Positions 9,232-39,287 of a stretch of DNA of 64,000 bases are shown piece by piece. The stretch lies in contig CAZVUD010000001.1 in NCBI GenBank assembly GCA_964629615.1, positions 89,795 to 153,794 of the forward strand. Direction: 5' to 3'. A program made the position numbers and the translations under genes. This DNA comes from an uncultured Clostridium sp. (lineage in GTDB: Bacteria; Bacillota; Clostridia; Oscillospirales; CAG-272). Numbering within the stretch: position 1 is the stretch's first letter; every line of letters starts with the position of its first letter. The notes under the pieces were generated by a model. The model worked only from the letters and a program-made list of their open reading frames with translations. It had not been told where the DNA came from and searched no databases.

Positions 9232-9946
9232 CTCTGTTGACCACCCGTTTTATCTTTCTTATGTATACACATCCCATAAGGAGTGCTATGATAGCTCCCG
9301 CAAGCACCGATACCGCAAGCATTGTCTTTCCGCTTATCGCTTTAATTGAGAAGAGCAGCAGGAAGGTCTCTGCACAGCTGCCTATAATATATCCCTCAAA
9401 GGCGGTAACGACAAGTGTAAGTATCATAGATATTAAAAGCCGCTTTTTGTCATATGTGACACGTATATCGCTTGATGAAAACATTCCGTCCACACGTCTC
9501 AGCACAAAGCTGATATATGATGTATCGGGCGGCAAGGACGCCATCTCGGTATATCCGACGCTTCTGATATGCTCGCATACGCCTATAACATCCAAAAGCT
9601 TGCCTTTGCTGTCATACACTATAATATCGTAGCTTATACTGCGAATGTGGGGATCTATCTTGCATTTTATATATTTTCTGCCGTCCTTTTCCATTAGCAC
9701 ATAGCTATCCACATACCTTCTGTAGCGAAGCTCGGGAAAATATCTTATCGCCCTGCCGCCGTCAAAGCGGAGCTTTCTGATACCGCGGTCGTAGGTATCA
9801 CATCCGAAAAATGTGAGCGACGGCACAAAGCGCCATATCACAGCACCGACAGTATAGACATATAAAAATATGCTCACCGACAATATAAGAAATGTGACGG
9901 CATTTGAAATTATAAGCTCCAAAAGTTCTCTATTCATGCTTATCAC
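9224..9946 (-). CDS. Hypothetical polytopic membrane protein
   Basis: 240-aa ORF with an N-terminal TM (AVTFLILSVSIFLYVYTVGAVIW), a central ~110-aa soluble region and C-terminal TMs. The start is uncertain: GTG at 9946 or ATG at 9937. Confidence 0.4.
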   Translation of the reverse strand: MISMNRELLELIISNAVTFLILSVSIFLYVYTVGAVIWRFVPSLTFFGCDTYDRGIRKLRFDGGRAIRYFPELRYRRYVDSYVLMEKDGRKYIKCKIDPHIRSISYDIIVYDSKGKLLDVIGVCEHIRSVGYTEMASLPPDTSYISFVLRRVDGMFSSSDIRVTYDKKRLLISMILTLVVTAFEGYIIGSCAETFLLLFSIKAISGKTMLAVSVLAGAIIALLMGCVYIRKIKRVVNRDE

Positions 9947-9978
9947 AAAACCGCTTAGGTATTCTCCTTCCCCTCAAG

Positions 9979-11475
9979 TTATGTCGCATTATTCAGATTG
10001 TAGCTGTCAAAGAACTCCATGAGCCTTTCGGACGTTATATTGCCCTCTTCCTTTGAAAGCTCCTCAAGCATGCGCTCTGCCGTTACTCTCGCAACATCAT
10101 CGGAAACGTCTACTCCGTAATCCTTCATATACTTCAATGCATTCTCTGTCATGACATCCAGCTTTTTCTCATCGCTCATGCCCTTCAGGTCATTGAGAGA
10201 ATCCGCAAGGTCGTCCATAAGCATCTGATATTCCGTGATATTTTTCTTAAGATCATCTATGACAGATGCCACTGCATTGAGTGTCATATTGCGCACTGTC
10301 TTTTCTATATGTCTCATTCTCGGGTTGTCGTCAAGTATATCGCATATCTTATCTATAAGCTCATTTTCGGATATGATCGCCATTATCTCCTCATAATTTC
10401 CGCTCTGCAAAATACCGCTCTCTGCCGCAAGAACATATATGCGCAAAAGAGTATCCGCATCTCTTACCACAGTCTTTGGCGTTGTGCTCGTGCAGGTATA
10501 AAGTATCTCAGACAGTAATGGCTCTATGACCTCATTTACACTTGGAAGGATGATGTCCATATACGGCTCACCAACAAGCCACTTCCCCGATGCTCCCGAC
10601 AACAAGTCAGCCGAGAGCGACTTTGCTGTCTCGCTCTTTTTTATCTTTTTGGGCAGAGCAAGCAAGTCATCCATTTGATACGGCTCTGCTTCACCTATAT
10701 TTTTTATGACATTTACGCCGGCTATGAGATCGGGAAGCGAATCGCGTGCGGCTCTTATCTCGCGCACGAGGGAAAATCTGTTGTCGTTTAGCGTAGATGA
10801 TGATACCATTCTGTAGGTTACATTGCCGCCCAAGCAATGAAGCATATCGGAGATGCCATCGCTTGAATATTTCTCTATCAAAAAGTCGATATCATCGCCT
10901 ATTTTAACGCTTCCGCTGATCACGGGGTTTTCCTTGACGGTACAGGACAGCTCGTGCGCACAGTTGAGCGTTCCCGTGATCGGTGACATTATAACGGATG
11001 AGAGTATGACACCAAATACAGCGCCTACGATAGCGCCAAGCACCTTTGAGTCGCGCATATACCACGCTGCAAGCTCACCTTCATGCTCGGATGCTCCGCC
11101 GAATTTTGACATCTTCTTTTTCAGTACGGCAGACAGAATTATGCTAAGGGTGGCATACACAAACGGCAAAACAAAAAGGAAGAGCACGGGCGTTATCGCC
11201 GCATCTATAAATGCCCACATGACATCCCCTATATTCGCAAGCTGCTTTTCAATTTCTACCATAAAGTCGGTATCTTCAAGAAGCTCATAGATAAGATCGG
11301 TTATGGCATTGGATGCCAAAAAGGATATAAGTGCCGTTATCAAAATGGCACATATAAGCTTTGCCGACCGTATCAACGAATCGTATATTCCGCGACTGTA
11401 TCCCCGACATGCCCCCACAAGGACACACATCAGGGTAAGGATCAGAACAAATGCGGAGATGAGGGTAATGGTCAT
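9979..11475 (-). CDS. CvpA-like membrane protein with large C-terminal helical domain (first gene of operon)
   Basis: 498-aa ORF with RBS AAGGAGGAG. The N-terminal ~150 aa (ISAFVLILTLMCVLVGACRGYSRGIYDSLIRSAKLICAILITALISFLA...) resemble the CvpA/colicin-V-production membrane family. The remainder is unassigned. Confidence 0.45.
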   Translation of the reverse strand: MTITLISAFVLILTLMCVLVGACRGYSRGIYDSLIRSAKLICAILITALISFLASNAITDLIYELLEDTDFMVEIEKQLANIGDVMWAFIDAAITPVLFLFVLPFVYATLSIILSAVLKKKMSKFGGASEHEGELAAWYMRDSKVLGAIVGAVFGVILSSVIMSPITGTLNCAHELSCTVKENPVISGSVKIGDDIDFLIEKYSSDGISDMLHCLGGNVTYRMVSSSTLNDNRFSLVREIRAARDSLPDLIAGVNVIKNIGEAEPYQMDDLLALPKKIKKSETAKSLSADLLSGASGKWLVGEPYMDIILPSVNEVIEPLLSEILYTCTSTTPKTVVRDADTLLRIYVLAAESGILQSGNYEEIMAIISENELIDKICDILDDNPRMRHIEKTVRNMTLNAVASVIDDLKKNITEYQMLMDDLADSLNDLKGMSDEKKLDVMTENALKYMKDYGVDVSDDVARVTAERMLEELSKEEGNITSERLMEFFDSYNLNNAT

Positions 11476-21668: not shown

Positions 21669-21697
21669 TTGACAAAACGGCATTAATATGTTAGAAT
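21669..21697 (+). promoter_or_regulatory. Candidate sigma-A promoter for topB
   Basis: TTGACA-17 nt-TAGAAT. Confidence 0.5.
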
Positions 21698-21732
21698 ATA
21701 TGTATATAAAAACAGCAAAGAAGACAGATGAA

Positions 21733-23871
21733 ATGACACTTATAATAGCAGAAAAGCCAAGCCTTGCACGAAATATCGTTGCGGGCATCGGACCTATGCA
21801 AAAGAAAAACGGATATTATGAAGGGTGCGGATATTTAGTCACATGGGCTTTCGGACACCTTTTTTCGCTGTGCGACATTGAGGATTACACAGGCATGAGC
21901 GGAAAATGGAGCATGGAGGGTCTTCCCTGCTTTCCCGAGGAATTCAAATTCAAGATGAAGCTGCAGGCAGACAAAAAGGTGGATGCAGGCGTTGAAAGGC
22001 AGTTTAATACCATAAAATATCTCTGCTGTCGCGACGATGTGGATACTATCGTAAATGCAGGCGACTCTGATCGCGAGGGTGAGATAATAGTGCGCATATG
22101 TGTGCAAAAGACAGGCGCGCTTGATATGGGAAAAAGCTTTTTGAGGCTTTGGCTCCCCGACCAGACTCCAGAGACCGTAAGAAGCGCACTGTCGGAAATG
22201 AAAAGTGAATGTGAATACGACCGCTTGGCAGACGAGGGATTTGCGCGCACATATATCGATTGGCTGTATGGTGTCAACCTCACACGCTATGCGACATTAA
22301 AGACAGGAACTCTTTTGCGTGTCGGCAGAGTTATCGTGCCTATAGTCAAGGCTATATATGACCGCGATATGGAAATAAGAAATTTCATACCCGACAAGTA
22401 TTACGGCATAGCCTCAAAGGAGCTGACAGACGGCGAGGAGATAGAACTCGTATCAAAGAAAAAATTTGAAAAAGAAAAGCTGTATCAGGCAAAAGAGGAA
22501 TGCGCAAGATACAATGCATGCGAAGCGCGTGTATCATCGGTAAAGACAAAAAAAGAGGTCGTAAATCCGCCAAAGCTCTTTTCCCTTTCAAAGCTGCAGA
22601 GCTTGCTTGGTAAAAAATACAAGATGTCCATGCAGGAAAGCCTTGCCACCGTGCAAAAGCTGTATGAGGACGGATATCTTACATATCCGCGTACCAACTC
22701 CGAATACCTTGCCACCGCCGAAAAGGAAAAGATCAAAAAGATAATTTCAAATATAAGGGGCATGGGATATCCGACGATATTCAAGGATAAAAAGACCATA
22801 TTTGACGACTCAAAGATAGAGAGCCACAGTGCGCTCACCCCGACATACAAGATACCGAGCAAGGACAAGCTGTCCGAGCGCGAGATGCAGGTATATCAGA
22901 CCGTTTTCCGCAGATTTGTTGCAGTATTTTGTGAGGAGGACTGCCTTGTAAGCAAAACAGAGATCACCATAGATGTGGGCGGGCTTGAGCAATTCACGCT
23001 CAAGGGCATTACCGTCCTGACAAGAGGATTTCTGAAATACGACGACAGCGACAAAAAAGACAAGATCCTGCCGCCACTGAAGCGCGGCGATCTTGTAAAC
23101 ATTGATTTCAAGCCCGTTGAGAAGCAGACCAGCCCACCGAGGCACTACACGATAGAAACGCTCAACAATTATCTGAAAAATCCATTCAGAAAAGACAAGG
23201 CTCAAAATCAAAAGACAGATGACAAGCCCACCGATGATCTCATAGGAAACGAGACCGACAGCGATGACGAGGAATACCGCGCTATATTTGAGGGTCTGGA
23301 GCTTGGCACGGAGGCTACGAGAACAGGCATCATTGACAACGCAAGGCGCTCTAAATACATAGATCTCAAAAAAGATGTGTACACGATACTGCCCGAGGGC
23401 GAATATCTGATAGAACAGCTCTCACGCATGGGCATATCCATGGACAAGTACAAAACAAGTGAGCTCGGTCAGGCGCTCAAAAAGGTATACCGCGGAGAGA
23501 TGGGGGTATACGACAGCGTTCATATGGCGCAAAATGAGATAAATGAAGTATTTTCATATACAAAGGCAGATATTGAAGACGACACCGACACGGGATTTTA
23601 CGGTGATGTCGTCGGCAAGTGCCCTATATGCAACAAGGATGTGGTCAAAGGAAAATACAGCTACGGCTGCCTTGGCTACCGTGAGGGATGTAATTTTAAG
23701 ATCAGCCTTTGCATTTGCAAGCGCAATATATCCATAGCAAATGCAAGAATGCTTTTAAGCGAGGGCAAAACATCGCAGATACGAAATTTCATTTCAAAAA
23801 ACGGCAAGCCCTTCTCTGCCTCTCTTGTTTTGCGTGACGGACGCGCGGAATTTGACTTTTCCGCAAAATAA
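21733..23871 (+). CDS. topB: DNA topoisomerase III
   Basis: MTLIIAEKPSLARNI (Toprim start), SDREGE, YLTYPRTNSEYL (active-site Tyr region) and C-terminal Cys-rich zinc ribbons (CPICNKDV...YGCLGYREGC). The start was chosen downstream of the predicted transcription start. Confidence 0.85.
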   Translation: MTLIIAEKPSLARNIVAGIGPMQKKNGYYEGCGYLVTWAFGHLFSLCDIEDYTGMSGKWSMEGLPCFPEEFKFKMKLQADKKVDAGVERQFNTIKYLCCRDDVDTIVNAGDSDREGEIIVRICVQKTGALDMGKSFLRLWLPDQTPETVRSALSEMKSECEYDRLADEGFARTYIDWLYGVNLTRYATLKTGTLLRVGRVIVPIVKAIYDRDMEIRNFIPDKYYGIASKELTDGEEIELVSKKKFEKEKLYQAKEECARYNACEARVSSVKTKKEVVNPPKLFSLSKLQSLLGKKYKMSMQESLATVQKLYEDGYLTYPRTNSEYLATAEKEKIKKIISNIRGMGYPTIFKDKKTIFDDSKIESHSALTPTYKIPSKDKLSEREMQVYQTVFRRFVAVFCEEDCLVSKTEITIDVGGLEQFTLKGITVLTRGFLKYDDSDKKDKILPPLKRGDLVNIDFKPVEKQTSPPRHYTIETLNNYLKNPFRKDKAQNQKTDDKPTDDLIGNETDSDDEEYRAIFEGLELGTEATRTGIIDNARRSKYIDLKKDVYTILPEGEYLIEQLSRMGISMDKYKTSELGQALKKVYRGEMGVYDSVHMAQNEINEVFSYTKADIEDDTDTGFYGDVVGKCPICNKDVVKGKYSYGCLGYREGCNFKISLCICKRNISIANARMLLSEGKTSQIRNFISKNGKPFSASLVLRDGRAEFDFSAK

Positions 23872-23993: not shown

Positions 23994-25637
23994 CTATTCA
24001 GCAATGATCTCAACTATCTCTCTTATCTTGTCGTTTTCACTGCTTCTGTATACAACATTCATATGATCGCCAACATTTGTAAGTACAATGCTCTCAATAT
24101 CCGCAACGCGACATTTATATGTGTAGCCGTCGTCGCCGCTGATATAATAATAGGTATTGCCGTCTATAACTGCATCAGTTATTCTCGTTACATTAAACTC
24201 AGCCCTTGCATCATCGCTGTTGCCTATGTCCGGTCCATTGCCAATACCCTTATCCGACAAAAGCTTTTTATACGCCTTCATAACATCGCCGCGCGTAGAG
24301 CCCGTGGCAACGAGATTGACATTTTCAACATTTACAAGAGCATACAGCTTTACATATCCGCCGTCGTCCTTCAAGACCATGATATAGGTAGCTGTTCCCG
24401 ACACATTGATAAGCGACGGGAAGGACGCCTTGTATCCCATGTTCTGTACCTGACCCTCGGCTGATTTCATCGCACTATATTCCTCAGCGCCCACAACGGG
24501 ATAATACTTATATTCGCCCGTGCGCGCATTACTGATTATAAAACCGATATTGGACTCATCATTCGTTACAGAGGTAACGCCTGTAAAATACCACACATCG
24601 TCACCTATCACGATATATCCGTAATCGTCCGTGGTCTGCTTACAGCCCTTATTTCCAATAACTGAATTTATATATCCGCCCGAGAGCATGCCATGCCAAT
24701 TGTATTTTTCCTCGGCAAGATCGCCCGAAAATACCGCGTCTACCCAAGACGGCACATCGGACAGCGCATATATACTGCTGTCACCGCTTACGGGATCGAA
24801 TATGATGACTTCATTTACGTCCATAGCGCCGAAGAGTCCCGCATTTGCCGAAACACAGGATACGATATAATAGGGGTTGCCCTCCTCGTCTATCTCAAAG
24901 CTGATAAAATCAAATATCTTTGTCGGATGATCAAATCTGAGCTTTCTTATCAGATTTTCGCCAAAATATGCCGATTCGACATATTTTAAGGGCTTATCAA
25001 GGCTTACATATTCTCCGTCGTTCTCCACAGGGTCCACAAGAACATATCCGGGTATGCCGCTATCCTTATTATTGAGCCACTTGAAAAATCCTGCATATTC
25101 AAGATTTGACACCTTTTTGGGAGTTCCGCCGTAATTTATCTGCGTGTATCTTTCGCTCACCTCATACTGCGACACTACATCCGAAAGCTTACCGAGGGTC
25201 CTGTTGCCGAATATCTTGGCAGATTCACTGTCCATAAGTGCGATATTCGTGACATCGCTTGTTTCCTTCATATCCTCTTCAAACACAGCATCCTTGACTT
25301 CTATAACGCTTGCATATTTCTCTGCATTGAACATCTCAGATGAAGCAATTCCGCACAGTATAGCTATTGCCGCAGGTGCGATAACTATGATGGCAGGCAC
25401 CATATTCAGGCTTATGTTTGCAGAATTATTGGTCTTGCCATTCTTTTTAGTCTGAGCTTTTTTTGCTTTAAACAAAAACGGCGCAAGATAAAATGCAAAT
25501 GCCACCGTAAGGTATACCCAGAACAGAGGCGAATGAACATTTACGGGCGGAAGGATAAGATAATACAATCCTCCGCTTAAAAGCGTTCCGCCAACGACGG
25601 ATATAATGATCTTTGTGATCAAATTCTTTTTTTCCAT
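23994..25637 (-). CDS. Hypothetical membrane protein with large extracytoplasmic domain
   Basis: 547 aa with three N-terminal TM segments, then a ~440-aa domain of unrecognised family. It has its own promoter. Confidence 0.4.
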   Translation of the reverse strand: MEKKNLITKIIISVVGGTLLSGGLYYLILPPVNVHSPLFWVYLTVAFAFYLAPFLFKAKKAQTKKNGKTNNSANISLNMVPAIIVIAPAAIAILCGIASSEMFNAEKYASVIEVKDAVFEEDMKETSDVTNIALMDSESAKIFGNRTLGKLSDVVSQYEVSERYTQINYGGTPKKVSNLEYAGFFKWLNNKDSGIPGYVLVDPVENDGEYVSLDKPLKYVESAYFGENLIRKLRFDHPTKIFDFISFEIDEEGNPYYIVSCVSANAGLFGAMDVNEVIIFDPVSGDSSIYALSDVPSWVDAVFSGDLAEEKYNWHGMLSGGYINSVIGNKGCKQTTDDYGYIVIGDDVWYFTGVTSVTNDESNIGFIISNARTGEYKYYPVVGAEEYSAMKSAEGQVQNMGYKASFPSLINVSGTATYIMVLKDDGGYVKLYALVNVENVNLVATGSTRGDVMKAYKKLLSDKGIGNGPDIGNSDDARAEFNVTRITDAVIDGNTYYYISGDDGYTYKCRVADIESIVLTNVGDHMNVVYRSSENDKIREIVEIIAE

Positions 25638-25669
25638 ATATTATTACCTCCATATTTCATTTAACAATA

Positions 25670-25698
25670 TTTTACCATACAAAGAAAAAAATTGCAAC
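25670..25698 (-). promoter_or_regulatory. Candidate sigma-A promoter for 23994..25637
   Basis: The minus strand reads TTGCAA-17 nt-TAAAAT. Confidence 0.45.
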
Positions 25699-25722
25699 GC
25701 TTTTCTAATATAATTAGAAAAA

Positions 25723-25750
25723 ATCCCGTCGGGGCAAGCCCCGACGGGAT
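25723..25750 (-). terminator. Rho-independent terminator ending the capsid-module operon
   Basis: 12-bp GC-rich stem atcccgtcgggg/ccccgacgggat with a 4-nt loop, followed on the minus strand by TTTTTT. It lies 3 nt after the stop of 25754..26044. Confidence 0.75.
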
Positions 25751-25753
25751 TAG

Positions 25754-26044
25754 TTAAAGATTAAGATACTGTATTAAAAACGAAGCGATCGCGCCTGCTA
25801 TAACGCTTGCGGCATAGCTCACGGTTTTTATAAGTATCTCGGCAGGACGCCGCTCTATCCGCTTAAGGCGCCTGCGGCTCTCACTGCAGATGATCTCCTG
25901 ATTTTCAACCATAGGCTCAAGCTTTCGGGTGCATTTTTCAAGGTCCTCTATCTTGTCCTCGTGCCGCTCAAGCACCTCATTAGTTCTGCGGTGTCTTTCA
26001 TCACAAAGCTCTTTGTTGAATGATTCCATATTTTTCTCCTCCAT
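25754..26044 (-). CDS. XhlA-like (haemolysin XhlA family) small membrane protein
   Basis: 96 aa. The N-terminal coiled region with CDERHRRTNEVLERHEDKIEDLEK and the C-terminal TM (AASVIAGAIASFLIQYL) match the XhlA architecture. Confidence 0.4.
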   Translation of the reverse strand: MEEKNMESFNKELCDERHRRTNEVLERHEDKIEDLEKCTRKLEPMVENQEIICSESRRRLKRIERRPAEILIKTVSYAASVIAGAIASFLIQYLNL

Positions 26045-26088
26045 TTACGGTATCTGTGACGTCACATCCCGGAAGGACCTGCAAAATA

Positions 26089-26478
26089 TCAGATATTGTC
26101 TGCGCTCTCATCCAAAAACTTCTTTTGTTCAGCTTCAAGATACTGAGCTGTTTTCATATCCTGTATTTCAGACTGCTCAAGCACAAGGGCAAATTTGCGT
26201 CTGACCTTGACCCACTCACCGCGCTTTATCATACAGTTTTTTCCGTTTACAGCAACGTAAACATCATCCTTGTATCTGTCATTATCGCGGAAAAGCTTTA
26301 CGCTCACATATTCGTTAAGATAGTCCTCGTCCTTTGCGCGCTTCATAAGCGCATCGTCCGCCGCCTTTTTTTCCTTTTGTCTGAAATAGGCACATTCGGC
26401 TTCCTTTTTTGCAAGCTTTTCCTCGTATTCAGCCTTGAGCGCATTGAGCGCATCCTTATATTTCATATCGTTTTCCAT
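26089..26478 (-). CDS. Hypothetical phage-module protein
   Basis: 129-aa ORF immediately downstream of the capsid gene; charged and helical. I recognise no family. Confidence 0.3.
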   Translation of the reverse strand: MENDMKYKDALNALKAEYEEKLAKKEAECAYFRQKEKKAADDALMKRAKDEDYLNEYVSVKLFRDNDRYKDDVYVAVNGKNCMIKRGEWVKVRRKFALVLEQSEIQDMKTAQYLEAEQKKFLDESADNI

Positions 26479-26526
26479 AAGATCCTTCCTTTCGATGATC
26501 GGTTATTTATTTTTTATTGCATGCTG

Positions 26527-27819
26527 TCAGTCATTTGCGGATGAGGCAGTTTCTATTCTGATCATAAATGCCTCGCAAAGACGCATACTTACCTTATTTG
26601 CCTTCCAGCCGACAGTGGCTCTCTGATTTAAGGGATCGTTTGCGCCCGATGAGCCAAGCTGCTTTACTATATGCTCAAGTCCGCCGCCCTCTACCGATGT
26701 CGTGCCGTATGCATTGTCGCCAAATACGACAGTTGCATATACCTTGCATCCGTCCTTGCCTGCATCGGCAGGATATATGGGCGTGCCTGCAGGCGCGCTT
26801 ATATTAGCTTCATTCTCCTTGCTCTCATCGGTATATATGTACATTACCTGTGAGGAATTAGAGCCAACAAAGTATCTCTCTCCGTTTATAAATACCCACC
26901 TGTTTGCAAGAGTGTTGGTCTTTACATCAGACCTTGCCGTAAACTGGATGACATTGGAATTTGTCACCTGCGATGTAAGCGAGAGAGGATCCTTTGAAAG
27001 CGGAGTGGGCGTAAACACCTTTGCCTCGGTGCTTTCTATAAATCTTACGCCCTCGATCTTTCCTATCTCGCCTTCAAAAATATTGTCATTTGCCGCATAC
27101 TGATTGGGAAATTTCCAATTGGGATCGCTCATGAGATCATACGCGCAATCGGGGTGGATTATCGCAATGTATGAGCCATTTATCTTCTCGGCATTCTGAT
27201 TTTTTAAAAATCTGACCGCGCGTCTTATCGCATTTACGGTAAGATAGCAATTGTCCTTCTCGTCAGCCTGATTTCCAGCGACAAGATATCTTGCACTCAC
27301 CTGCCCTTCACCATACTGCACGTTAGTGCCACCGCAGACCACCTCGCGCGTGATCGCATCAAGCGTTCTGCCTGCCTGTGCGCCAAGCAGCTTCGTTGCC
27401 ATGACAAGATCGTTGTCTATGGCAGTCATAAGCAGCATATCGCTAAGCTCCACATATCCGCCGTACTGCGCAAGCGTAGCATTGACCACGCTCATGTCTA
27501 TCTTCTGACCTGTAGGTGTAACGCCCTCCTTGATCTCATCCGTCAAGGTGGGCAACGGATCGTACTTGCGAAACTGTATGGTCTTGCCGCTTCCGCGAGG
27601 TATCCTCACCTTCTGCGCAAATCTGTCAAATACCAGTGCAGGCTCTGCGTTATCTATAAGATAATCGCTGTAATAGGTCTTCATCTGCTCACTGAGCCCC
27701 ATTCCCTCCGCATAAGGTGTATTTACACCGCTCTGAGCGTCCGTCATACCTTCGGTGGTATGGACGTTTTCAGATGCACCGAAAAGCGAAAGGTCGATTT
27801 TTGTAGCTTTAATGTTCAT
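26527..27819 (-). CDS. Major capsid protein, N4-gp56 family-like
   Basis: 430 aa. The block FDRFAQKVRIPRGSGKTIQFRKYDPLPTLTDEIKEGVTPTGQKIDMSVVNATLAQYGGYVELSDMLLMTAID...GAQAGRTLD matches my recollection of N4-gp56-type major capsid proteins. Confidence 0.75.
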   Translation of the reverse strand: MNIKATKIDLSLFGASENVHTTEGMTDAQSGVNTPYAEGMGLSEQMKTYYSDYLIDNAEPALVFDRFAQKVRIPRGSGKTIQFRKYDPLPTLTDEIKEGVTPTGQKIDMSVVNATLAQYGGYVELSDMLLMTAIDNDLVMATKLLGAQAGRTLDAITREVVCGGTNVQYGEGQVSARYLVAGNQADEKDNCYLTVNAIRRAVRFLKNQNAEKINGSYIAIIHPDCAYDLMSDPNWKFPNQYAANDNIFEGEIGKIEGVRFIESTEAKVFTPTPLSKDPLSLTSQVTNSNVIQFTARSDVKTNTLANRWVFINGERYFVGSNSSQVMYIYTDESKENEANISAPAGTPIYPADAGKDGCKVYATVVFGDNAYGTTSVEGGGLEHIVKQLGSSGANDPLNQRATVGWKANKVSMRLCEAFMIRIETASSAND

Positions 27820-27841
27820 ATCTTACTCATTCTCCTGTAAT

Positions 27842-28285
27842 TTATTTTAAATTGATCATCTCTCCGCTTGCCGCACGGCGTGCAACAAGCGCACGTTCCT
27901 CACGTGTCATTTCGGAAACACGCTTTCCCGAGCCTACAGCCCCCTTTACGGTGCCGTTTTCCGACACTCTCTGCCGTCTGCTCCTTATCTTTTGCAAAAG
28001 CTCCCTTTCGGCGCTCTCGCGTATCTCCTTTTCACGGGATGCAAGGCTGTCGGCTGCATTCTTCACCGCTTCGGCTCTCGCCCGGGCTATATCCGCCTCA
28101 AAAAAGCTCTTATATATTCCACATGTGAGTCTTAAATAGTCCTCACGCATGATCTCCCTGCATTCCTCATCGCCGATATCGCATATTTCCATATCGCTAT
28201 CAGTATCTGTATTGTTATTGCTATCCGCGTCGCACGCATCGGGCATGCCGCATCCGTCATTTAAAATATCTTCTGTCATAAACAT
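27842..28285 (-). CDS. Putative scaffolding protein
   Basis: 147 aa with an acidic N-terminus, helical E/R-rich core and basic C-terminus. It sits directly upstream of the capsid gene. Confidence 0.4.
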   Translation of the reverse strand: MFMTEDILNDGCGMPDACDADSNNNTDTDSDMEICDIGDEECREIMREDYLRLTCGIYKSFFEADIARARAEAVKNAADSLASREKEIRESAERELLQKIRSRRQRVSENGTVKGAVGSGKRVSEMTREERALVARRAASGEMINLK

Positions 28286-28309
28286 CTCCTATCATGGCTT
28301 ATCTTAGCT

Positions 28310-28660
28310 TTATATATCCGCTCTTTTCGGCAGCTTTTTCAGTATATGTGAGTCCCATATGCCGTTTTTTACTGATACCTGATCGGGATATGACTCACTT
28401 ATCTGAAGGATACCTATGCAAGCCATTCTGAAGGCTTCGGTATCGGAGGTGCGGCAGCTTATGCTTGCATGTCCGCGCTCTAATCGCCTTACCTCGATAT
28501 CATTCGGATACCTATTATACAGATATCCGAGCAACGTGTAAAATATCGCCGACACCGCGGCACATACGACCGTCTGACCGCCTTCTTTATAAGTGGAGTG
28601 TCCGCATATCTCAAGAGATATCACTTCCTCCCCTTCTTTTTTGAAATCCACGCTTATCAT
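28310..28660 (-). CDS. Prp-like cysteine protease (ribosomal-processing protease family paralog)
   Basis: 116 aa. EICGHSTYKEGGQTVVCAAVSAI carries the His...Cys dyad context (GH..G.D.VCAAVS) of Prp/DUF464. Compare the chromosomal Prp at 38922..39287 (GHTGYGEEGDDVLCAALSAM). Confidence 0.65.
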   Translation of the reverse strand: MISVDFKKEGEEVISLEICGHSTYKEGGQTVVCAAVSAIFYTLLGYLYNRYPNDIEVRRLERGHASISCRTSDTEAFRMACIGILQISESYPDQVSVKNGIWDSHILKKLPKRADI

Positions 28661-28723
28661 ATATCAGATCTCCATTCCGCCGCGGTGCGGCACAAGCAGT
28701 GCTTTATATACATATATCATAGG

Positions 28724-30274
28724 CTACTCACCCTTAGTGCTCTCAAATATCGCGCTCTTAAGTCCGCCAAGCCCCTCATAATCGACAAGGGTCAGCAAGA
28801 GCTTTGTCTGCTCAAGATTTTCGCTCTTGAACGCTCCGCATCTGTAAAGCTCAAGCGCAAATTCGTTGAGCTCCTTGCGCTCGTTATAGGTCTTTTTATG
28901 TGTATCTATGCTTATGTCAAAGCATGGGCAGTATCCGTCGTCGCGGCGTCTTATATTGTCCGCCTTGAAATACTCATAGCTGTAACCGTTATCCCCCGCA
29001 ATGCGGAACACCCTTTCTTCGGTATAGAACTGTCTTATCAGCTCAAGCGTCAATTCCCATATCTTTACACACGCGCGGCAGGAATTTTCAATGCCGTCGC
29101 GTGAGAATTTGGCATTTGCACTCTGAAGCATGCTTATAGCCGATGCCGCGCTGACATTTCCGTTCGTCCTTCCGACAGACACATCGTGACAGCCTGTTAT
29201 TTCCTTAAGCTCGTCTATCTTCATCTGCATGATATCCACAACGCTTGCATCCATGCTTCCCGTATCTATGCGCTTAAGCTTCTCTTCGTCGATATCCCCC
29301 TCGACCTCAACTATCTGCTTGCTTGTGTCCTGAAAATCCCCGATATTAACGCCAAGGCTCTTTTTTGCCCAAAACCTCACATTTGAGGCAAGGTCGGAAT
29401 AGTTCTCAATGTTCTTGTCCAGCCTGTCAATGTATTCCTCGCATTTTCTGCCGAGCGCTATCAAGCCAAATCCGCATACACTTCCGTCGCACGGATACAT
29501 GGCATCAAAAACCACAGGATATCTCCCGTGACTGTACCATCCGTCAATGCAAGCCTCATCATCCTCAGAGGAATATATGACCCCGTACTCGCAGAGCTTG
29601 CAAAAATGCAGTATGCTGTGCCCGTCAACATATTTTTTATAATACCAATCCACAACGGCGCACTTACCGTCGCGCATGCCATCAGATCCGTATATGCAGG
29701 ATGTGAGATCGCCGTATATGCCTATTTGGTCATCAATATCAAGATTAGGATATTTTTCCTTCAGCTTGTCCTTGTCCTCCAAGGCGCAGATAAACAGGTC
29801 CTTTGAGTCCTCAATGTCCTCAACACCAAACTCCCAGAATATGTTGTCGATATTTATCTTAGTTATGCTCACATCTCCAAGCCCGTCGCACATGTCGTTG
29901 TCCCAGAATACTCCGTACACTGCTGTGCCGTATCTTATCTTATTCCATGCGTTATCGCTGTATATCTGCTCAAATCCGCTCCTTGAATTGATCACGGGAA
30001 TTATCCTGCCAAGCACCGCTGCCGCCTCCGCATCTCTTTCCTCACGCGGCAGACATACGCAGGTGGGCATATTATCGGCAATATCCGCGTGCTTATTTAA
30101 GATACTGTTGTGCAGCCACGATGAGCCCTTGCCTGAAAGATATCTTTCATTCCAATAATATCTCTCGCTCTTTATCCTGTTTGTAAGCTCGGTCTTGGAA
30201 TAAATATACTTCTTCAGCGTCTGTATTCCGTATATAGGATCCGGAGCTTTGATCCTGATCTTCTCCTTACTCAT
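28724..30274 (-). CDS. Phage portal protein
   Basis: 516 aa, placed between the terminase and the protease/scaffold/capsid genes. Size and position are typical of a portal. The family call rests on synteny plus general similarity. Confidence 0.65.
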   Translation of the reverse strand: MSKEKIRIKAPDPIYGIQTLKKYIYSKTELTNRIKSERYYWNERYLSGKGSSWLHNSILNKHADIADNMPTCVCLPREERDAEAAAVLGRIIPVINSRSGFEQIYSDNAWNKIRYGTAVYGVFWDNDMCDGLGDVSITKINIDNIFWEFGVEDIEDSKDLFICALEDKDKLKEKYPNLDIDDQIGIYGDLTSCIYGSDGMRDGKCAVVDWYYKKYVDGHSILHFCKLCEYGVIYSSEDDEACIDGWYSHGRYPVVFDAMYPCDGSVCGFGLIALGRKCEEYIDRLDKNIENYSDLASNVRFWAKKSLGVNIGDFQDTSKQIVEVEGDIDEEKLKRIDTGSMDASVVDIMQMKIDELKEITGCHDVSVGRTNGNVSAASAISMLQSANAKFSRDGIENSCRACVKIWELTLELIRQFYTEERVFRIAGDNGYSYEYFKADNIRRRDDGYCPCFDISIDTHKKTYNERKELNEFALELYRCGAFKSENLEQTKLLLTLVDYEGLGGLKSAIFESTKGE

Positions 30275-30293
30275 AGTATGATATTTTCCTTTC

Positions 30294-31790
30294 TTATCTG
30301 CGGTATGATGTAGATCCGTACCGCTCTGCTTCGATCGCAGGTGCGCGTACGGTCATGCCCACCTCTCTTTTTGGGGCTTTCATGGGATTTTCCATACACA
30401 CATACCGAAATTCGTCATATATATGGTCCTCACCCTTTGTATTTACGTCCTCAACGTCTACCGTATCATATACAAGTGACGGAAAGGTGCGTATAAAGTT
30501 TCTGCAGCTTGAGAAAACATAGAATGACGGTCGTCCGTCAGGCAGAAATGCAAGTCGATTGTGTACCTGTTGCTTACCTGCAATTCGTGAATTGTCGCCC
30601 CTGTCAAAATAAACGCCTCGCTTCTCCATGATCTCGCCGATGCTCTCACCCCCGTTTTTCTGAAATATTGCGGGGTCGGCGACACCTCGGATATGGCGCA
30701 TTGACAGATTGGGATCCTCAGATTCTATCCTTCTTATCTCGTTTGCTATTCTGCCTGCATCCCATCTCACACCCTCATCAGCCACACCGTCGCATCCGTA
30801 AAGCTCGCGTATGCGATACAGCTTGCCCTCTCTGTCACAGGCATACCAGCCGACCGAAAAGGGCTTTGTATATCCCCAGTCAAAGCCGCGGTATACCTGC
30901 CAATCGCGCGGTATCAGAAATGGTCTTATAACATGCGTATATATTCCGTCCAGATATCCGTCGGGATTATCTCTCCACTCTGAAAACACCTGCCCTGAGA
31001 AGCTGTTCCAATCTCCGTAAAGCAGAGCTGCACGCTCCTTTTGCGGAAGTGCCGCAAGACGTGTGAGATATCCCGGGTCGTTCTTCATAAGTATTTCGTT
31101 GTCGAATATGGTAGAGGGGACGAATATACGCGATCTTCTGCGCGTCTCCTCGTGCCCGTCGGGAAACATTATCTTTACCATTTCCCATATCGTTGTGAGA
31201 GGGGGCGCAGGTGTGATAAACCTGTCCTTGACCCACCCATGACCGATACCGCCCGGATTTGCCTGCGCCCTTATGTAACAGCGCGTGTTTGCGCCGTTGG
31301 GTCTGTTTCGTGAAAACAGATAACTGTATTCATCAAAGGTAAACTGTGTCAGCTCGTCAAAATCTATGAAATCATACCGCTTTCCCTGATAGTTATATTT
31401 ATCCGCAGGATGGGCAAGAGATCCGAAATATATCTTAGCTCCCGACGGAAATCTCCATACATGCTTTGACTCATTATACACGGCATCGGGATTTGCGGGG
31501 AGATATATCTCGTGTGAGCGGTCTATAAGCTCGGAGAGCTGCGGATATGTCTTTCTTAGTATCAGCCCCCTGTAATGCGGAATGTCTATCTGGCGCAGAG
31601 CTTCTGCAAGCGCGCAATCGCTCTTGCCTCCGCCTGCCGCACCGCCGTAAAGCGCTTCGTCCTCCAGACGCGACATAAATTCCCGTTGCTTTTTTTGCGG
31701 ACGCCATATATATCTTTTGCTCATATCCCTGCCGCTTTTGCCTGTATGCTTCATGGGTATGCCGCGATCACTCCGTGTCTTCATACTCAC
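30294..31790 (-). CDS. Terminase large subunit
   Basis: Walker A YGGAAGGGKSD and Walker B-like YDFIDFDELTQF, with a C-terminal nuclease-type region (GVADPA...GEDHIYDEFRY). The start is uncertain because several in-frame Met codons are present. Confidence 0.85.
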   Translation of the reverse strand: MSMKTRSDRGIPMKHTGKSGRDMSKRYIWRPQKKQREFMSRLEDEALYGGAAGGGKSDCALAEALRQIDIPHYRGLILRKTYPQLSELIDRSHEIYLPANPDAVYNESKHVWRFPSGAKIYFGSLAHPADKYNYQGKRYDFIDFDELTQFTFDEYSYLFSRNRPNGANTRCYIRAQANPGGIGHGWVKDRFITPAPPLTTIWEMVKIMFPDGHEETRRRSRIFVPSTIFDNEILMKNDPGYLTRLAALPQKERAALLYGDWNSFSGQVFSEWRDNPDGYLDGIYTHVIRPFLIPRDWQVYRGFDWGYTKPFSVGWYACDREGKLYRIRELYGCDGVADEGVRWDAGRIANEIRRIESEDPNLSMRHIRGVADPAIFQKNGGESIGEIMEKRGVYFDRGDNSRIAGKQQVHNRLAFLPDGRPSFYVFSSCRNFIRTFPSLVYDTVDVEDVNTKGEDHIYDEFRYVCMENPMKAPKREVGMTVRAPAIEAERYGSTSYRR

Positions 31791-32304
31791 CTATCCTATC
31801 TGCATCAGGTATATCCACCTCACACACAGCTTCCACCGATGTGCCGTCGGGCTTGTCTGACCACCTGTCGGGTTGCCTGTTTTTGAGCCAGAATGAAGTA
31901 GCTCTCACATCCGCAGGTATGTAATTCTCGTCCTCACCGACGCAAAGCTCCTCATATTCCCTGAGCTTTTTACCCGTATCGGGGTCGTAATCCACACGCT
32001 TGAGCTTATACGTCTTGTTGACCTTGACGCTGTATCCGCATGCCTTCTTATATAAAGCATCTATCACGGCATAATCAGCACCTGCGCGCCCGAGCTTCAG
32101 GGCGTCCGAAAATTCCTTGTGTGTTGCCTTCCAGCGTTTGAATGTCGCATGTGATATACCCGAATCGATCGCGATATCCTTATCCGAATACCCATCCTCC
32201 GCCATGCGCCTCAGATATTCTGCGCCGCGCTCCTCCATGAAGCTCTCATATTTCGTTTTCCTCATTCTCTGATAGATCAGACGTATCAATTCCGACAGAC
32301 ACAT
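31768..32304 (-). CDS. Terminase small subunit
   Basis: HTH (DIAIDSGISHATFKRWKATH) and the ATSFWLKNRQPDRWSDK block typical of small terminases. The true start is probably an internal Met (32265 or 32238). Confidence 0.6.
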   Translation of the reverse strand: MCLSELIRLIYQRMRKTKYESFMEERGAEYLRRMAEDGYSDKDIAIDSGISHATFKRWKATHKEFSDALKLGRAGADYAVIDALYKKACGYSVKVNKTYKLKRVDYDPDTGKKLREYEELCVGEDENYIPADVRATSFWLKNRQPDRWSDKPDGTSVEAVCEVDIPDADRIGEYEDTE

Positions 32305-32548
32305 GATAGCAGTCGCCGCCGTCAGTCACTCTTATATGCATAAGCGGATCATTTATCCTGTCCGACAGCTCTTGCTTGTTTATTACGCACTCTCCTTCTG
32401 AAAATGCAAACGTAAGCAGGGCTTTGAGCATCATGACCGTCTCATTTAGTCCCTCACATCTTTCCTTATACTCTCTTATAACTCCGTTTCGCTCGCGGAG
32501 CATATCACAAAGCCTGTTCGATCTTGACACCGCTGTATTTCCTTTCAT
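32246..32548 (-). CDS. Hypothetical island protein
   Basis: 100-aa ORF in operon context. I recognise no family. Confidence 0.3.
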   Translation of the reverse strand: MKGNTAVSRSNRLCDMLRERNGVIREYKERCEGLNETVMMLKALLTFAFSEGECVINKQELSDRINDPLMHIRVTDGGDCYHVSVGIDTSDLSENEENEI

Positions 32549-32729
32549 AATAGTTATCCATCATAATTTTAAACGGACATTCCTTCCATTTCGTCGGGTG
32601 GGCGCAATATCCGTAAATTATTTCTCTCTTAGCCTTTTTGTCAGGAAAAGCAAATCTCGTACACTCACAGCATACGCGTCTTTCCCTTCCAACCTCTTTC
32701 ACATATGGACAAGTTCCTCTGAATGCCAT
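32505..32729 (-). CDS. Small Cys-rich protein (possible zinc-binding), first gene of island operon
   Basis: 74 aa: CPYV...CCEC...CAHPTKWKECPF. Confidence 0.3.
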   Translation of the reverse strand: MAFRGTCPYVKEVGRERRVCCECTRFAFPDKKAKREIIYGYCAHPTKWKECPFKIMMDNYYERKYSGVKIEQAL

Positions 32730-32850
32730 TTAAAATTCCTTTCTATGCCATTTGGCTGATCTATATTATTGTTAAGTTTTCTAAACTCTGTGTTCAAAAA
32801 AATATACCGGTCTATTCTCCAAAAACACGGTCTGCAACTTAACTGTGAAT

Positions 32851-32879
32851 ATTATAGCACATTTGTTCTATAATGTCAA
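32851..32879 (-). promoter_or_regulatory. Consensus sigma-A promoter of the head/packaging operon
   Basis: The minus strand reads TTGACA-17 nt-TATAAT, an exact consensus, about 115 nt upstream of the ATG at 32729. Confidence 0.7.
32856..32869. promoter_or_regulatory. Operator O1: imperfect GAAC-N4-GTTC-like palindrome inside the promoter spacer
   Basis: The minus strand reads AGAACAAATGTGCT, one mismatch from the O2 palindrome. It lies between the -35 and -10 elements of the island promoter. Confidence 0.55.
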
Positions 32880-32918
32880 GCAAAAGTAAAGTTTTCTGAA
32901 CTTTTTTGTTTTTCCTTA

Positions 32919-32947
32919 TTGACAAAAGGGTTTTTGTGTGTTAAAAT
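32919..32947 (+). promoter_or_regulatory. Sigma-A promoter of the repressor gene
   Basis: TTGACA-17 nt-TGtTAAAAT (extended -10). Confidence 0.6.
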
Positions 32948-32956
32948 CAAAATATA

Positions 32957-32970
32957 AGAACAAAAGTTCT
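32957..32970. promoter_or_regulatory. Operator O2: perfect palindrome AGAACAAAAGTTCT (Cheo/SOS-box-like GAAC-N4-GTTC)
   Basis: Perfect 14-bp palindrome just downstream of the predicted repressor-gene transcription start. Confidence 0.6.
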
Positions 32971-33006
32971 ATTAATAAATTGTGAACAGGATGAAAAAGG
33001 GATATT

Positions 33007-33621
33007 ATGGATGATCGCACATTTTCAAAAAGACTCGCATCTCGACTGCATGAGCTCAACATGTCGCAGGCAGAGCTGTCAAGACAGACCGGGATCTCAA
33101 AGGCACGCATAAGCCAATATATGCACGGAGCCTACAAGCCGTCAGGGGATGCCACGGTCAAGCTTGCAAAAGCTCTCATGTGCTCAGAGGAATATCTGCT
33201 TTGCTACACGCATGAAGCAGATACGCAGTCTGACGGGCGGCGACTCAAGATACTTGGCGAGGTCAGATGCGGTCTGCCTGCCTTGGCTGAAGAGATATAT
33301 GACGGTGAGATCATAACAGACAGATATATAGACGCCGACTTCTGCCTCAGAGCCAAGGGAGACAGCATGACAGACGCACGCATATGCGACGGCGATATAG
33401 TTTACATCAAGCGCACCGACAGCGTCTGTAACGGTGACATCGCAGTTATCATAATCGACGGTGAAACTACCCTCAAGCGCGTGTATTTCTACCCCGACTC
33501 CCATAAGCTTATACTCATCCCCGAAAATAAAAATTACAAGCCCCTCACCTACTCGGGCGAGGAGCTTGCAAACGTGCGCATACTCGGAAAAGCAGTAGCC
33601 TTTACCTCAAAGCTTCTGTAA
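33007..33621 (+). CDS. Phage-type repressor: XRE-family HTH + S24 (LexA/CI-like) autopeptidase domain
   Basis: 204 aa. HTH LNMSQAELSRQTGISKARISQYMHG. S24 motifs RAKGDSMTDARICDGDIVYIKR (Ser) and TTLKRV (Lys). Confidence 0.8.
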   Translation: MDDRTFSKRLASRLHELNMSQAELSRQTGISKARISQYMHGAYKPSGDATVKLAKALMCSEEYLLCYTHEADTQSDGRRLKILGEVRCGLPALAEEIYDGEIITDRYIDADFCLRAKGDSMTDARICDGDIVYIKRTDSVCNGDIAVIIIDGETTLKRVYFYPDSHKLILIPENKNYKPLTYSGEELANVRILGKAVAFTSKLL

Positions 33622-33831
33622 CAGCAATTCAGATATAAAATCACACACTACATCATCTGCATGCGCCATTGTAACCTCACCTATATTGCATATCGCGGCA
33701 AATCTCTCGATCTTGTCGCGATCTCTGCATATACCTGCATAATATCGGTACAGATTTCCTTCCCTATTACAAATTTTAAGCCCCCAGATGCCGTCCGCTT
33801 CCTTTTCAGCGGAAAAAATCAGTATGTCCAT
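33607..33831 (-). CDS. Hypothetical small protein, convergent with and overlapping the 3' end of the repressor gene
   Basis: 74-aa ORF overlapping the repressor gene by 15 nt. I recognise no family. Confidence 0.25.
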   Translation of the reverse strand: MDILIFSAEKEADGIWGLKICNREGNLYRYYAGICRDRDKIERFAAICNIGEVTMAHADDVVCDFISELLLQKL

Positions 33832-34401: not shown

Positions 34402-34788
34402 ATGGCATTCAATAATTATGAAACACTTTTCATCGTTGATGTAACAGCAGGCGAGGAAGCTGCAAAGGCTACCGTTGATAAGTTCACAACCTTGATTAGC
34501 GAAAACGGTGAGATCATTGATATCGCTAACTGGGGCAAAAAGCGTCTTGCTTACCTCATCAATGATATGAGCGAAGGTGTTTACACTGTAGTAACCTACA
34601 AGGCAGATCCTTCTTTCATCTCTGAGCTTGAGCGTCTTATGAACATTGATGAATCCGTAATGCGTTCGCTTACTCTTAAGCTTGAGCACGAGCCTACATT
34701 CAAGGCTGAAGTTGAAGCTGAAGTAGCTAATGAAGAAGTAGTTGCTGAAGAAACAGTTGCTGAAGTTGAAACAACAGACGCAGAGTAA
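34402..34788 (+). CDS. rpsF: 30S ribosomal protein S6
   Basis: YETLFIVD...WGKKRLAYLIN...GVYTVV with an acidic C-terminal tail, an RBS GGGAGG, and rpsF-ssb-rpsR synteny. Confidence 0.9.
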   Translation: MAFNNYETLFIVDVTAGEEAAKATVDKFTTLISENGEIIDIANWGKKRLAYLINDMSEGVYTVVTYKADPSFISELERLMNIDESVMRSLTLKLEHEPTFKAEVEAEVANEEVVAEETVAEVETTDAE

Positions 34789-34812
34789 TTCAGTACATTC
34801 GGAGGGCATCGT

Positions 34813-35265
34813 ATGGCAAACTTCAATTTAAATAAGGTCATCCTCGGCGGTAGACTTACTGCCGACCCCGAACTCAAAACAACTCAGAGCGGCATCTCGG
34901 TAGTGTCCTTCACTATCGCAGTAAACCGCAGATACACAAAGGACTCCGGTCAGCAGAGCGAATCCGATTTCTTTAACGTAACAGCATGGAGACAGACTGC
35001 AGAGTTTGTTTCACGTTACTTCAGAAAGGGTTCTTCCATCTGCATCGTCGGAAACATCCAGAACAGAAACTGGACAGATCAGGACGGACAGAAGCATTAT
35101 AGAACGGACATCGTTGCTGATGAAGTAATGTTTGTTGACTCAAGATCCGATTCCCCCGTAGCTCCCGATGCATTCGGTCAGTCTGCGGCGCCCGCATTCT
35201 CTTCACCTGCAGGTTCAGCTCCTAAATTTGAAGAGATAAAAACAGATGACGATCTCCCGTTCTGA
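34813..35265 (+). CDS. ssb: Single-stranded DNA-binding protein
   Basis: MANFNLNKVILGGRLTADPELK..., an OB-fold, and the C-terminal acidic tip DDDLPF. Confidence 0.9.
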   Translation: MANFNLNKVILGGRLTADPELKTTQSGISVVSFTIAVNRRYTKDSGQQSESDFFNVTAWRQTAEFVSRYFRKGSSICIVGNIQNRNWTDQDGQKHYRTDIVADEVMFVDSRSDSPVAPDAFGQSAAPAFSSPAGSAPKFEEIKTDDDLPF

Positions 35266-35302
35266 GATCGTTGTATAACAATTTTACAGGAGGATTTGAA
35301 AG

Positions 35303-35551
35303 ATGGATAGAAATGAAACTCGTGCACAAAGACCTGTTGTTCGCAAGAGAAGAAAAGTTTGTATCTTCTGTGCAGACAAGGTAGCATACATTGATTACAA
35401 GGATAGCGCAAAGCTCAGAAAGTTTATCAGCGAGCGCGGCAAGATCCTTCCCAGAAGAATTTCCGGTACATGCGCACTTCACCAGCGTGAGCTTAACACA
35501 GCTATCAAGCGCGCTCGTCAGGCAGCTCTTCTCCCCTATATTGCTGATTGA
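35303..35551 (+). CDS. rpsR: 30S ribosomal protein S18
   Basis: [17 protein letters not shown]...[24 protein letters not shown]. Confidence 0.9.
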
Positions 35552-38921: not shown

Positions 38922-39287
38922 TTAAACGTCATCATAGGGTTTGTCAACTACCGTAAGATCAAGGTAGTCATAGTATTCGTCCAACATATCCTCTATTTGC
39001 TTATAGTAAGCTAAGAAGATACCCGATACTGCGTATCTTTTCATCTCGTCCTCCTCAAATTCGGGGAGAGCGGACTTGGACTTGATTCGAATGTCAGCTG
39101 TATTCTCGTCGATCGTATAATCAATATGCGAATCGTAAGCGACCTCTATCGTATTGATAATGAGCATCGTCATGGCAGACAGTGCAGCGCAGAGGACATC
39201 ATCACCCTCTTCACCGTAGCCTGTGTGACCCTGCTCCTTGAAGCCGTAAAAAACACCGCCACTTCTGAAAAAAACGAGCTTTGTCAT
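38922..39287 (-). CDS. prp: Ribosomal-processing cysteine protease Prp
   Basis: It lies between rplU and rpmA and carries GHTGYGEEGDDVLCAALSAM (His/Cys dyad). Confidence 0.8.
   Translation of the reverse strand: MTKLVFFRSGGVFYGFKEQGHTGYGEEGDDVLCAALSAMTMLIINTIEVAYDSHIDYTIDENTADIRIKSKSALPEFEEDEMKRYAVSGIFLAYYKQIEDMLDEYYDYLDLTVVDKPYDDV

Follow-up and report, generated by a model that had tools for sequence, protein, structure and literature searches.

The described system that most resembles the element considered here is FpGTA, a gene transfer agent (GTA)-like element of Faecalibacterium prausnitzii (Nat Commun 2026, PMC12946183), whose 10.5-kb operon I encodes TerS, TerL, a portal, a protein annotated as Prp and a capsid protein of the N4-gp56 family, whose tail and lysis genes belong to another operon, and whose particles (~40 nm) hold ~8.5 kb of random host DNA. 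The same report, which also cites PBSX as GTA-like, identifies GTA-like packaging as a major route of capsid-mediated DNA mobilization in gut Ruminococcaceae and Oscillospiraceae, does not describe how it is switched on, and addresses no repressor, operators or SOS control for FpGTA (PMC12946183). Here we analyse a 64-kb stretch of DNA from an uncultured Clostridium sp. of the Oscillospirales (the whole stretch is referred to as the window), which carries an island of ~10 kb (23994–33831) in which a head/packaging operon and a repressor gene face away from each other across a 277-bp region (32730–33006), the sole intergenic gap inside the island.

Judged by its genes, the island fits an element of the FpGTA operon I type. 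It encodes TerS, TerL, portal, Prp, a scaffold and an N4-gp56 capsid protein (TIGR04387, 282 bits), and, as judged by description and accession order only, it agrees with operon I in which genes are present and how they are arranged: the order of major capsid protein, Prp, portal and TerL is that of the consecutive accessions RCH50849-50852, the cluster is free of tail and lysis genes, and the host belongs to the gut Oscillospirales. FpGTA differs in its second operon, for tail and lysis; no counterpart was found in the 64-kb window.

SOS-linked control of mobile elements is known from several systems. In CTXphi (RstR and LexA) and in Bacillus thuringiensis GIL01 (LexA and gp7, without a CI-like repressor), control is exerted jointly by host LexA and the element, and a host LexA box in a key promoter ties expression to SOS; unlike the island, both are complete phages in which LexA acts on early or replication promoters and not on a structural operon. 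PBSX of Bacillus subtilis is a domesticated, SOS-inducible particle element whose XRE-type Xre acts from several operators around divergent promoters, but it differs from the island in that Xre has no S24 domain, the late operon needs the sigma-like factor Xpf, and tails and lysis are part of a ~28-kb block. With lambda-type CI/Cro and the XRE-S24 prophage repressors (PHROG 4) the island has in common a helix–turn–helix (HTH) joined to an S24 domain, an Ala/Cys-Gly cleavage site and a Ser/Lys dyad, a repressor gene divergent from the repressed genes, several dyads overlapping both promoters, and predicted autoregulation. It differs from them in that cro-like and early genes, an integrase and a replication module are all absent, in that repression falls on the head/packaging genes themselves, and in the predicted cleavage of its repressor at Cys-Gly, as in UmuD.

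We propose, with a probability of roughly 0.55, that the intergenic region is a double lock in which host LexA would act on GAAC-type boxes and a self-cleaving island repressor on GTTAAG-N4-CTTAAC dyads, together gating a head operon of the FpGTA operon I type. Sequence and comparisons together show the promoters and the sites with their conservation, the S24 motifs, and a motif that covaries with the recognition helix. In the proposed scheme, two outward-facing sigma-A promoters would serve the structural operon (P_head, leftward) and the XRE-S24 repressor gene (P_rep, rightward); the repressor would occupy dyads at O1, O2 and OU (and O3 in most relatives), and host LexA would occupy site 1 in the P_head spacer and site 2 just past the P_rep start. 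Upon DNA damage, activated RecA would induce LexA and the island repressor (Cys88-Gly89, Ser120/Lys157) alike to cleave themselves, and once both locks were open the terminase, portal, protease and capsid genes would be transcribed without an early-gene cascade. The assignment of proteins to sites, RecA-dependent cleavage and induction are the predictions of this scheme.

Promoters and GAAC boxes

Coordinates are positions in the window, and promoters were scored by consensus scan (out of 12) together with reading of 32600–33260. P_head, the promoter of the capsid/packaging operon, occupies 32851–32879 on the minus strand (TTGACA at 32879–32874, a 17-bp spacer, TATAAT at 32856–32851) and scores 12/12, with TGTGC preceding the -10 (TRTG/extended -10). 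P_rep, the promoter of the repressor gene, occupies 32919–32947 on the plus strand (TTGACA at 32919–32924, a 17-bp spacer, TAAAAT at 32942–32947) and scores 11/12, with TG at 32939–32940 (TGtTAAAAT). An earlier, sequence-only reading of this DNA had described an exact TTGACA-17-TATAAT capsid-operon promoter on the minus strand and a divergent TTGACA-17-TGtTAAAAT repressor promoter, and both are present where it placed them. P_head is kept in every island clade; P_rep is kept within the window's own subclade (A1, defined below), and its counterparts in other clades score 12/12. A plus-strand TATAAT (32869–32874) overlaps site 1 and the P_head spacer, is preceded by a weak -35 (TGAATA; 9/12) and may form a minor rightward promoter.

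Site 1 (TAGAAC-AAAT-GTGCTA, 32855–32870, minus strand) lies within the P_head spacer and overlaps the -10. Its 14-mer is AGAACAAATGTGCT (32856–32869), and GAACAAATGTGC matches 7 of the 8 core bases of the GAAC-N4-GTT(C/T) dyad; the right arm, GTGC, also provides the TG of the extended -10. Site 2 (AAGAAC-AAAA-GTTCTA, 32956–32971, plus strand) lies at ~+4 to +17 of the P_rep transcript, with the 14-mer AGAACAAAAGTTCT (32957–32970), whose arms GAAC/GTTC form a perfect inverted repeat, and all 8 core bases matched (GAACAAAAGTTC). The two 14-mers share 12 of 14 bases, the mismatches being at positions 9 and 12; the pair of sites, the perfect palindrome of the second and their degree of likeness are thus as the sequence-only reading had reported. 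A scan of the 64-kb window with a degenerate 14-mer and up to two mismatches returned exactly two matches, sites 1 and 2. As the chance expectation is ~2 in the whole window, the total count is unremarkable; for one 277-bp intergenic region, in which both matches fall, the expectation is ~0.009. Strict GAAC-N4-GTTC occurs twice in the window, at site 2 and at the start of the Fe-ADH gene.

Both boxes stand where LexA boxes are placed, site 1 in the P_head spacer and -10 and site 2 just past P_rep, and they resemble the clostridial and Bacillus LexA (Cheo) boxes in the GAAC-N4-GTT(C/T) form, the A/T-rich centre and the overlap with promoters. They differ in the right arm of site 1 (GTGC) and in what they would control: structural genes derived from a phage and a second S24 repressor in place of repair genes. 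Occupancy of site 1 would block P_head, and the stretch 32730–33006 clearly reads as a functional cis-regulatory region.

For comparison, a TerL-based scan with one genome per species was made, and the best 80 loci were kept of relatives in at least 360 genomes. Loci were re-oriented, and the region between the repressor gene and the first operon gene was extracted and compared, which gave four groups: clade A (repressor 48–100% identical to that of the window; 28 loci from the species-genome scan), with subclades A1 (the window, L007/L012, L008, L013, L014 and L015) and A2; clade B (L009-like); and clade C (repressor 38–44% identical). Site 1 is found inside P_head in 27 of the 28 clade-A species loci, in the form TTGACA-AAA-TAGAAC-N4-GTGC-TATAAT, with its arms ~90–100% conserved and its four central bases 60–80%. 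TRTG-n-TATAAT is a Gram-positive -16/extended -10 element, and the right arm of site 1 is GTGC rather than GTTC because this arm, together with the preceding base, makes up such an element. In clade B, P_head is near-invariant apart from a freely varying spacer (the -35, -10 and +1 region are fixed) and the GAAC box is absent from the regulatory region; since that spacer is the sole variable stretch of a near-invariant promoter, conservation of the spacer in clade A is not a promoter requirement. In clade C the P_head spacer is likewise without a GAAC box, and two clade-C islands, whose helix is unrelated, carry GAAC-AAAA-GTTT at +21 of P_head.

Site 2 is restricted to subclade A1, where it is a perfect GAAC-N4-GTTC in three of four species-genome loci; it is kept in L007/L012, L008, L013 and L014, and reads CGAAC in L007. 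In subclade A2, P_head contains site 1, whereas the promoter of the repressor gene contains a CTTAAC site. Of the two-operator switch that had been read from the window, the first operator is therefore widely conserved, but the two-site arrangement does not extend beyond one small subclade. A promoter of the same design (TTTACA-AAATCGAACACCCGTGC-TATAAT, containing CGAAC-ACCC-GTGC-TATAAT) was also seen outside the island in L042, at re-oriented position 19428, 5.7 kb past the repressor start, where it precedes a gene for a 99-amino-acid DUF6291 protein; as a marker of a host SOS gene it was set aside, the downstream open reading frame (ORF) being uninformative.

The island repressor and the CTTAAC motif family

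The repressor gene (33007–33621, plus strand) encodes a protein of 204 amino acids whose N-terminal domain is an XRE-type HTH with GISKARISQY as recognition helix and whose C-terminal domain is an S24 autopeptidase (Pfam HTH_3, 8e-10; Peptidase_S24, 2e-24; PHROG 4 transcriptional repressor, 1e-42). The predicted cleavage site is VRC88-G89 (Cys88-Gly89), and the predicted catalytic residues are Ser120 in GDSM and Lys157 in TLKR. The (Ala/Cys)-Gly site, the GDSM serine and the TLK(R/K) lysine are kept in 65 of 65 distinct relatives, which makes RecA-stimulated self-cleavage of the island repressor plausible. We considered whether this protein might itself be the host LexA and rejected the idea: its N terminus is HTH_3, it scores 85 bits against the LexA equivalog TIGR00498 (cut-off 111) with residues 70–199 only (that is, the C-terminal domain), and its gene always accompanies the island, even at a different chromosomal site. 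The exact window repressor was found only on metagenome contigs bearing the same island, and homologues 47–72% identical adjoin the same operon at the same or a different chromosomal site. A small DUF6514-like ORF (74 amino acids; 33607–33831, minus strand), present in subclade A1 and a few A2 islands only, is convergent with the repressor gene and overlaps its 3' end, and a strong terminator-like hairpin for it lies at 33534–33571 (minus strand), inside the repressor coding sequence.

A second motif, the hexamer CTTAAC/GTTAAG, recurs in clades A and B, in many cases as the dyad GTTAAG-N4-CTTAAC. Its positions are fixed: one is the P_head start site, one lies ~15–30 bp upstream of both -35 boxes, one falls within the P_rep spacer and one within the operon leader. 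It is enriched 23–86-fold in the intergenic region relative to the rest of the loci (A1, A2 and B). Three such sites are predicted repressor operators in the window, where the dyad at up to two mismatches has two matches only, O2 and OU. O1 is a half-site, CAGTTAAG (CTTAACTG on the plus strand; 32838–32845, minus strand), at ~+1 to +8 of the P_head transcript; as ACAGTTAAG it keeps a fixed spacing, four bases past the -10, in clades A and B, and its position holds a full GTTAAG-N4-CTTAAC dyad in some relatives and CTTACG..CGTAAG in clade C. O2 (GTAAAG-TTTT-CTGAAC, 32886–32901, plus strand) lies between the promoters, upstream of both -35 boxes, at a position kept in all clades. OU (GTTAAG-TTTT-CTAAAC, 32771–32786, plus strand) lies in the operon 5' leader, ~45–58 nt before the first start codon, where L007, L008, L013, L014, L015 and A2 islands have perfect dyads; it is predicted to be a roadblock operator. 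A further site, O3, is found in the P_rep spacer (TTGACA-TTTGCTTAACT) in clades A2 and B, that is, in most relatives; it is missing from the window's subclade, and site 2 occupies its place.

The motif changes together with the repressor. Clade C intergenic regions contain no CTTAAC; instead, ACGTAAG/CTTACG stands at the same three positions, enriched 125-fold and in clade C only, and the recognition helix changes from G[IL]SK[AP]R[IL]SQY to GV[KR]EAT[VA]QRY exactly where CTTAAC gives way to ACGTAAG. A third pairing comes from L107 (IMG/VR), in which the helix GLTESTVQRY accompanies a CTTGCG-N5-CGCAAG dyad at the operon start site. The operators that covary with the helix, as those of a CI-like repressor would, are thus the CTTAAC, ACGTAAG and CTTGCG dyads and not the GAAC boxes. 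Because the motif switches with the recognition helix, the GTTAAG-N4-CTTAAC dyads are the likelier repressor operators, and the island repressor probably uses these and not the GAAC boxes. Because O2 and O3 sit in DNA that is transcribed from neither promoter, the motif acts as DNA; an RNA structure was considered and rejected, the fold being weak (z = -2.5) and without an Rfam match, and copies of the motif being untranscribed and covarying with the HTH.

The operon leader has features of its own. The block TAGACCGGTATATTTTTTTG (operon strand; 32795–32814, minus strand) forms a weak hairpin that leads into a T7 run (32796–32802). CAAAAAAATATACCGGTCTA, from which this T7 run of the operon strand derives, does not vary within subclade A1. 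For the hairpin, -6.6 kcal/mol is predicted in the window, and its counterparts in clade B and subclade A2 are terminator-like (-8 to -17 kcal/mol); the fold of the whole leader has z = -2.5, and the leader matched no Rfam family. Hairpin and T-run may add a layer of attenuation.

Candidate binders of the GAAC boxes

To our knowledge, LexA is the only regulator that uses GAAC-N4-GTTC across the Firmicutes. Operators bound in vitro by Clostridioides difficile LexA include those of lexA (AGGAACAAATGTTTGC), recA (GAGAACAAATGTTTGT), ruvC (TAGAACATAAGTTTTT) and uvrB (AGGAACTAATGTTCGA) (PMC4234289), and LexA sites of uncultured gut Firmicutes were bound by B. subtilis LexA (PMC3998124). Sites 1 and 2 have their left arm and centre in common with the recA and ruvC operators. 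In ~1.3 Mb of related loci, perfect GAAC-N4-GTTC in non-coding DNA is essentially confined to the islands, apart from the Fe-ADH gene start. The GAAC box does not track the recognition helix, as A1 and clade B share SKARISQY and clade B has no box. The sequence-only reading had left the binder open between LexA, the repressor or both; the likeness to the C. difficile operators speaks for LexA, and the covariation of the other motif with the helix speaks against the repressor. The boxes look like host LexA boxes, and we favour host LexA as their binder. Were the island repressor to cleave itself as LexA does, clade A islands would be under two SOS keys, and those of clades B and C under one.

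Several observations weigh against this assignment. The GTGC of site 1 departs from the GTT that every listed C. difficile operator has at that place, and the affinity of LexA for it may be low. Site 2 holds the autoregulatory position of the repressor operator in other clades, which could equally mean binding by the repressor, and it is dispensable or lost in L015 and has one mismatch in the strain variant L002. The entire P_head promoter is strongly conserved in clade A, such that the edges of the footprint are not sharp. Motif and repressor clade share ancestry, and few independent events underlie the covariation: helix and operator switched together about three times, and the GAAC box was gained or lost once or twice. 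The LexA motif used is the Firmicutes-wide consensus, which is assumed for the host and may not be its own; no SOS genes were found in the window, and tblastn with approximate B. subtilis LexA and RecA queries found none in the 80 related loci.

Three other explanations were weighed against the proposed double lock. That the GAAC sites are operators of the island repressor, serving both P_head repression and P_rep autoregulation, seems to us unlikely. Sites 1 and 2 do stand at both positions expected of a CI-like repressor with divergent promoters, and site 2 stands in for the operator found in the P_rep spacer of other clades; the CTTAAC dyads would then be bound otherwise (for example, by the Cys-rich product of the first operon gene or by a host factor) or would act as RNA, for which the 5' CAGUUAAG of the leader RNA can pair with a downstream CUUAAC (z = -2.5). 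However, clade B has the same SKARISQY helix and architecture, yet no GAAC box and a freely varying spacer, and subclade A2 has site 1 at P_head but CTTAAC, not GAAC, in its own repressor promoter. Moreover, the switches from CTTAAC to ACGTAAG to CTTGCG follow the recognition helix, perfect CTTAAC dyads are still present in subclade A1, and a role as RNA cannot account for O2 (and O3 in relatives), which neither promoter transcribes.

We consider it improbable that the boxes are bound by another dimeric host regulator, neither LexA nor the repressor, that responds to a signal other than DNA damage. The GTGC arm of site 1, unlike every listed LexA operator, and the presence of the box in some clades only would suit such a regulator, but site 2 is a perfect GAAC-N4-GTTC (CGAAC in L007) and so conforms to the LexA consensus, and in ~1.3 Mb of related DNA such non-coding sites are essentially island-only. 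Least probable of all is that the likeness to LexA boxes has no function, site 1 being kept only as part of an inherited strong promoter and site 2 an inconsequential palindrome of the lineage. The conservation of the whole clade-A promoter, down to the AAAT that separates the -35 from the box, would be expected in that case, the GTGC arm is accounted for by the TRTG/-16 element, and islands in which site 2 is lost (L015) or mutated (L002) show no obvious damage; against this, the clade B spacer varies freely while the -35, -10 and +1 region stay fixed, the arms in clade A are more conserved than the centre, as in a dyad site, and two such similar 14-mers within 120 bp have a chance expectation of ~0.009.

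Gene content, distribution and biological meaning

The window island sits between a topoisomerase gene (21688–23871) and rpsF-ssb-rpsR (34402–35551). Its head/packaging operon comprises 11 ORFs on the minus strand (23994–32729) and faces the repressor gene. From the promoter onwards, it encodes a Cys-rich protein of 74 amino acids (32505–32729), a 100-amino-acid ORF (32246–32548), TerS (31768–32304), TerL (30294–31790), the portal (28724–30274), a Prp-like protease (28310–28660), a scaffold-like protein of 147 amino acids (27842–28285), the N4-gp56-type major capsid protein (26527–27819), ORFs of 129 (26089–26478) and 96 amino acids (25754–26044), and a membrane protein of 547 amino acids without a family match (23994–25637). 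No tail, lysis, integrase or replication genes were found in the island (23994–33831), and relatives show the same gene order. The distal end of the operon is variable: in L007 (1–2533), an 866-amino-acid protein with a faint RicinB-lectin match replaces the membrane protein.

The Cys-rich protein has four invariant cysteines (C7, C21, C42 and C51), is found in all island clades and in phage-like relatives, and has no match in Pfam, PHROG, NCBIfam or PDB. It was considered as the binder of the GAAC boxes and set aside, as it is also present in clades without the box and has no detectable family; the DUF6514-like and 100-amino-acid ORFs were set aside as well, being restricted to A1, whereas the box occurs in A1 and A2. 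Prp occurs twice in the window, once in the island, between the portal and scaffold genes, and once as the host ribosomal Prp 10 kb away (38922–39287, minus strand), between the L21 and L27 genes, which suggests Prp-type capsid maturation by a copy that the element itself encodes. Elsewhere in the window, a run of large minus-strand ORFs (859–11475), including a DUF2357 protein (2265–3947) and several without a family match, may be a defence or restriction cluster.

The relatives in at least 360 species genomes are all from uncultured Clostridia, Eubacteriales or Oscillospiraceae, and Faecalibacterium is not among the best 80 TerL loci. The divergent pair of repressor and Cys-rich gene, together with the head operon, is present in 63 of these 80 loci; TerL is 65–80% identical among loci, and repressors diverge to 38%. 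IMG/VR holds 526 relatives, mostly truncated islands or phage-like contigs of 30–45 kb that have the same head module and no adjacent repressor, and these relatives contribute five regulatory regions only. Islands of clades A2 and B (including L009-L011) adjoin a conserved sigma-70-family gene, and no integrase was found in either chromosomal context (A1 type or A2/B type). GCA_045660325.1 and GCA_052830185.1 are among the metagenome-assembled genomes that bear an island. Some such genomes have two TerL-related loci (L012 and L015; L079 and L082; L059 and L081; L058 and L086). In JAZRDO01, L012 and L015 are both islands and their repressors have identical recognition helices, which implies that the two repressors would cross-regulate; only L012 keeps site 2.

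An SOS-type switch that directly gates the structural operon is well supported as a hypothesis. DNA-damage control of that operon, as the sequence-only reading had suggested, is plausible in view of the S24 motifs (65/65) and the LexA-like sites. Its further point, that such control without intervening early genes is unusual, holds in so far as the structural operon appears to be controlled directly, but this is not a phage that skips its early genes; the control is direct because the element is reduced and GTA-like, resembling FpGTA operon I. The mechanism varies a familiar theme, SOS control by CI and LexA, here in a class of elements that was recognized recently and is of ecological importance. 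More tentatively, hundreds of uncultured gut Oscillospirales species may carry a domesticated GTA-like head/packaging operon that is gated directly by a two-key SOS switch, with damage triggering capsid-mediated export of host DNA.

The region gives a testable wiring diagram, composed of a self-cleaving repressor, operators that have diversified between clades and a LexA-type box added in one large clade. If the proposal is true, the natural helix/operator variants would offer repressor engineering a ready set of specificities, the regulatory logic so far missing for the newly described FpGTA family would be supplied, and conditions that damage DNA (such as antibiotics and inflammation) would have a direct link to gene transfer in gut bacteria that are abundant but uncultured.

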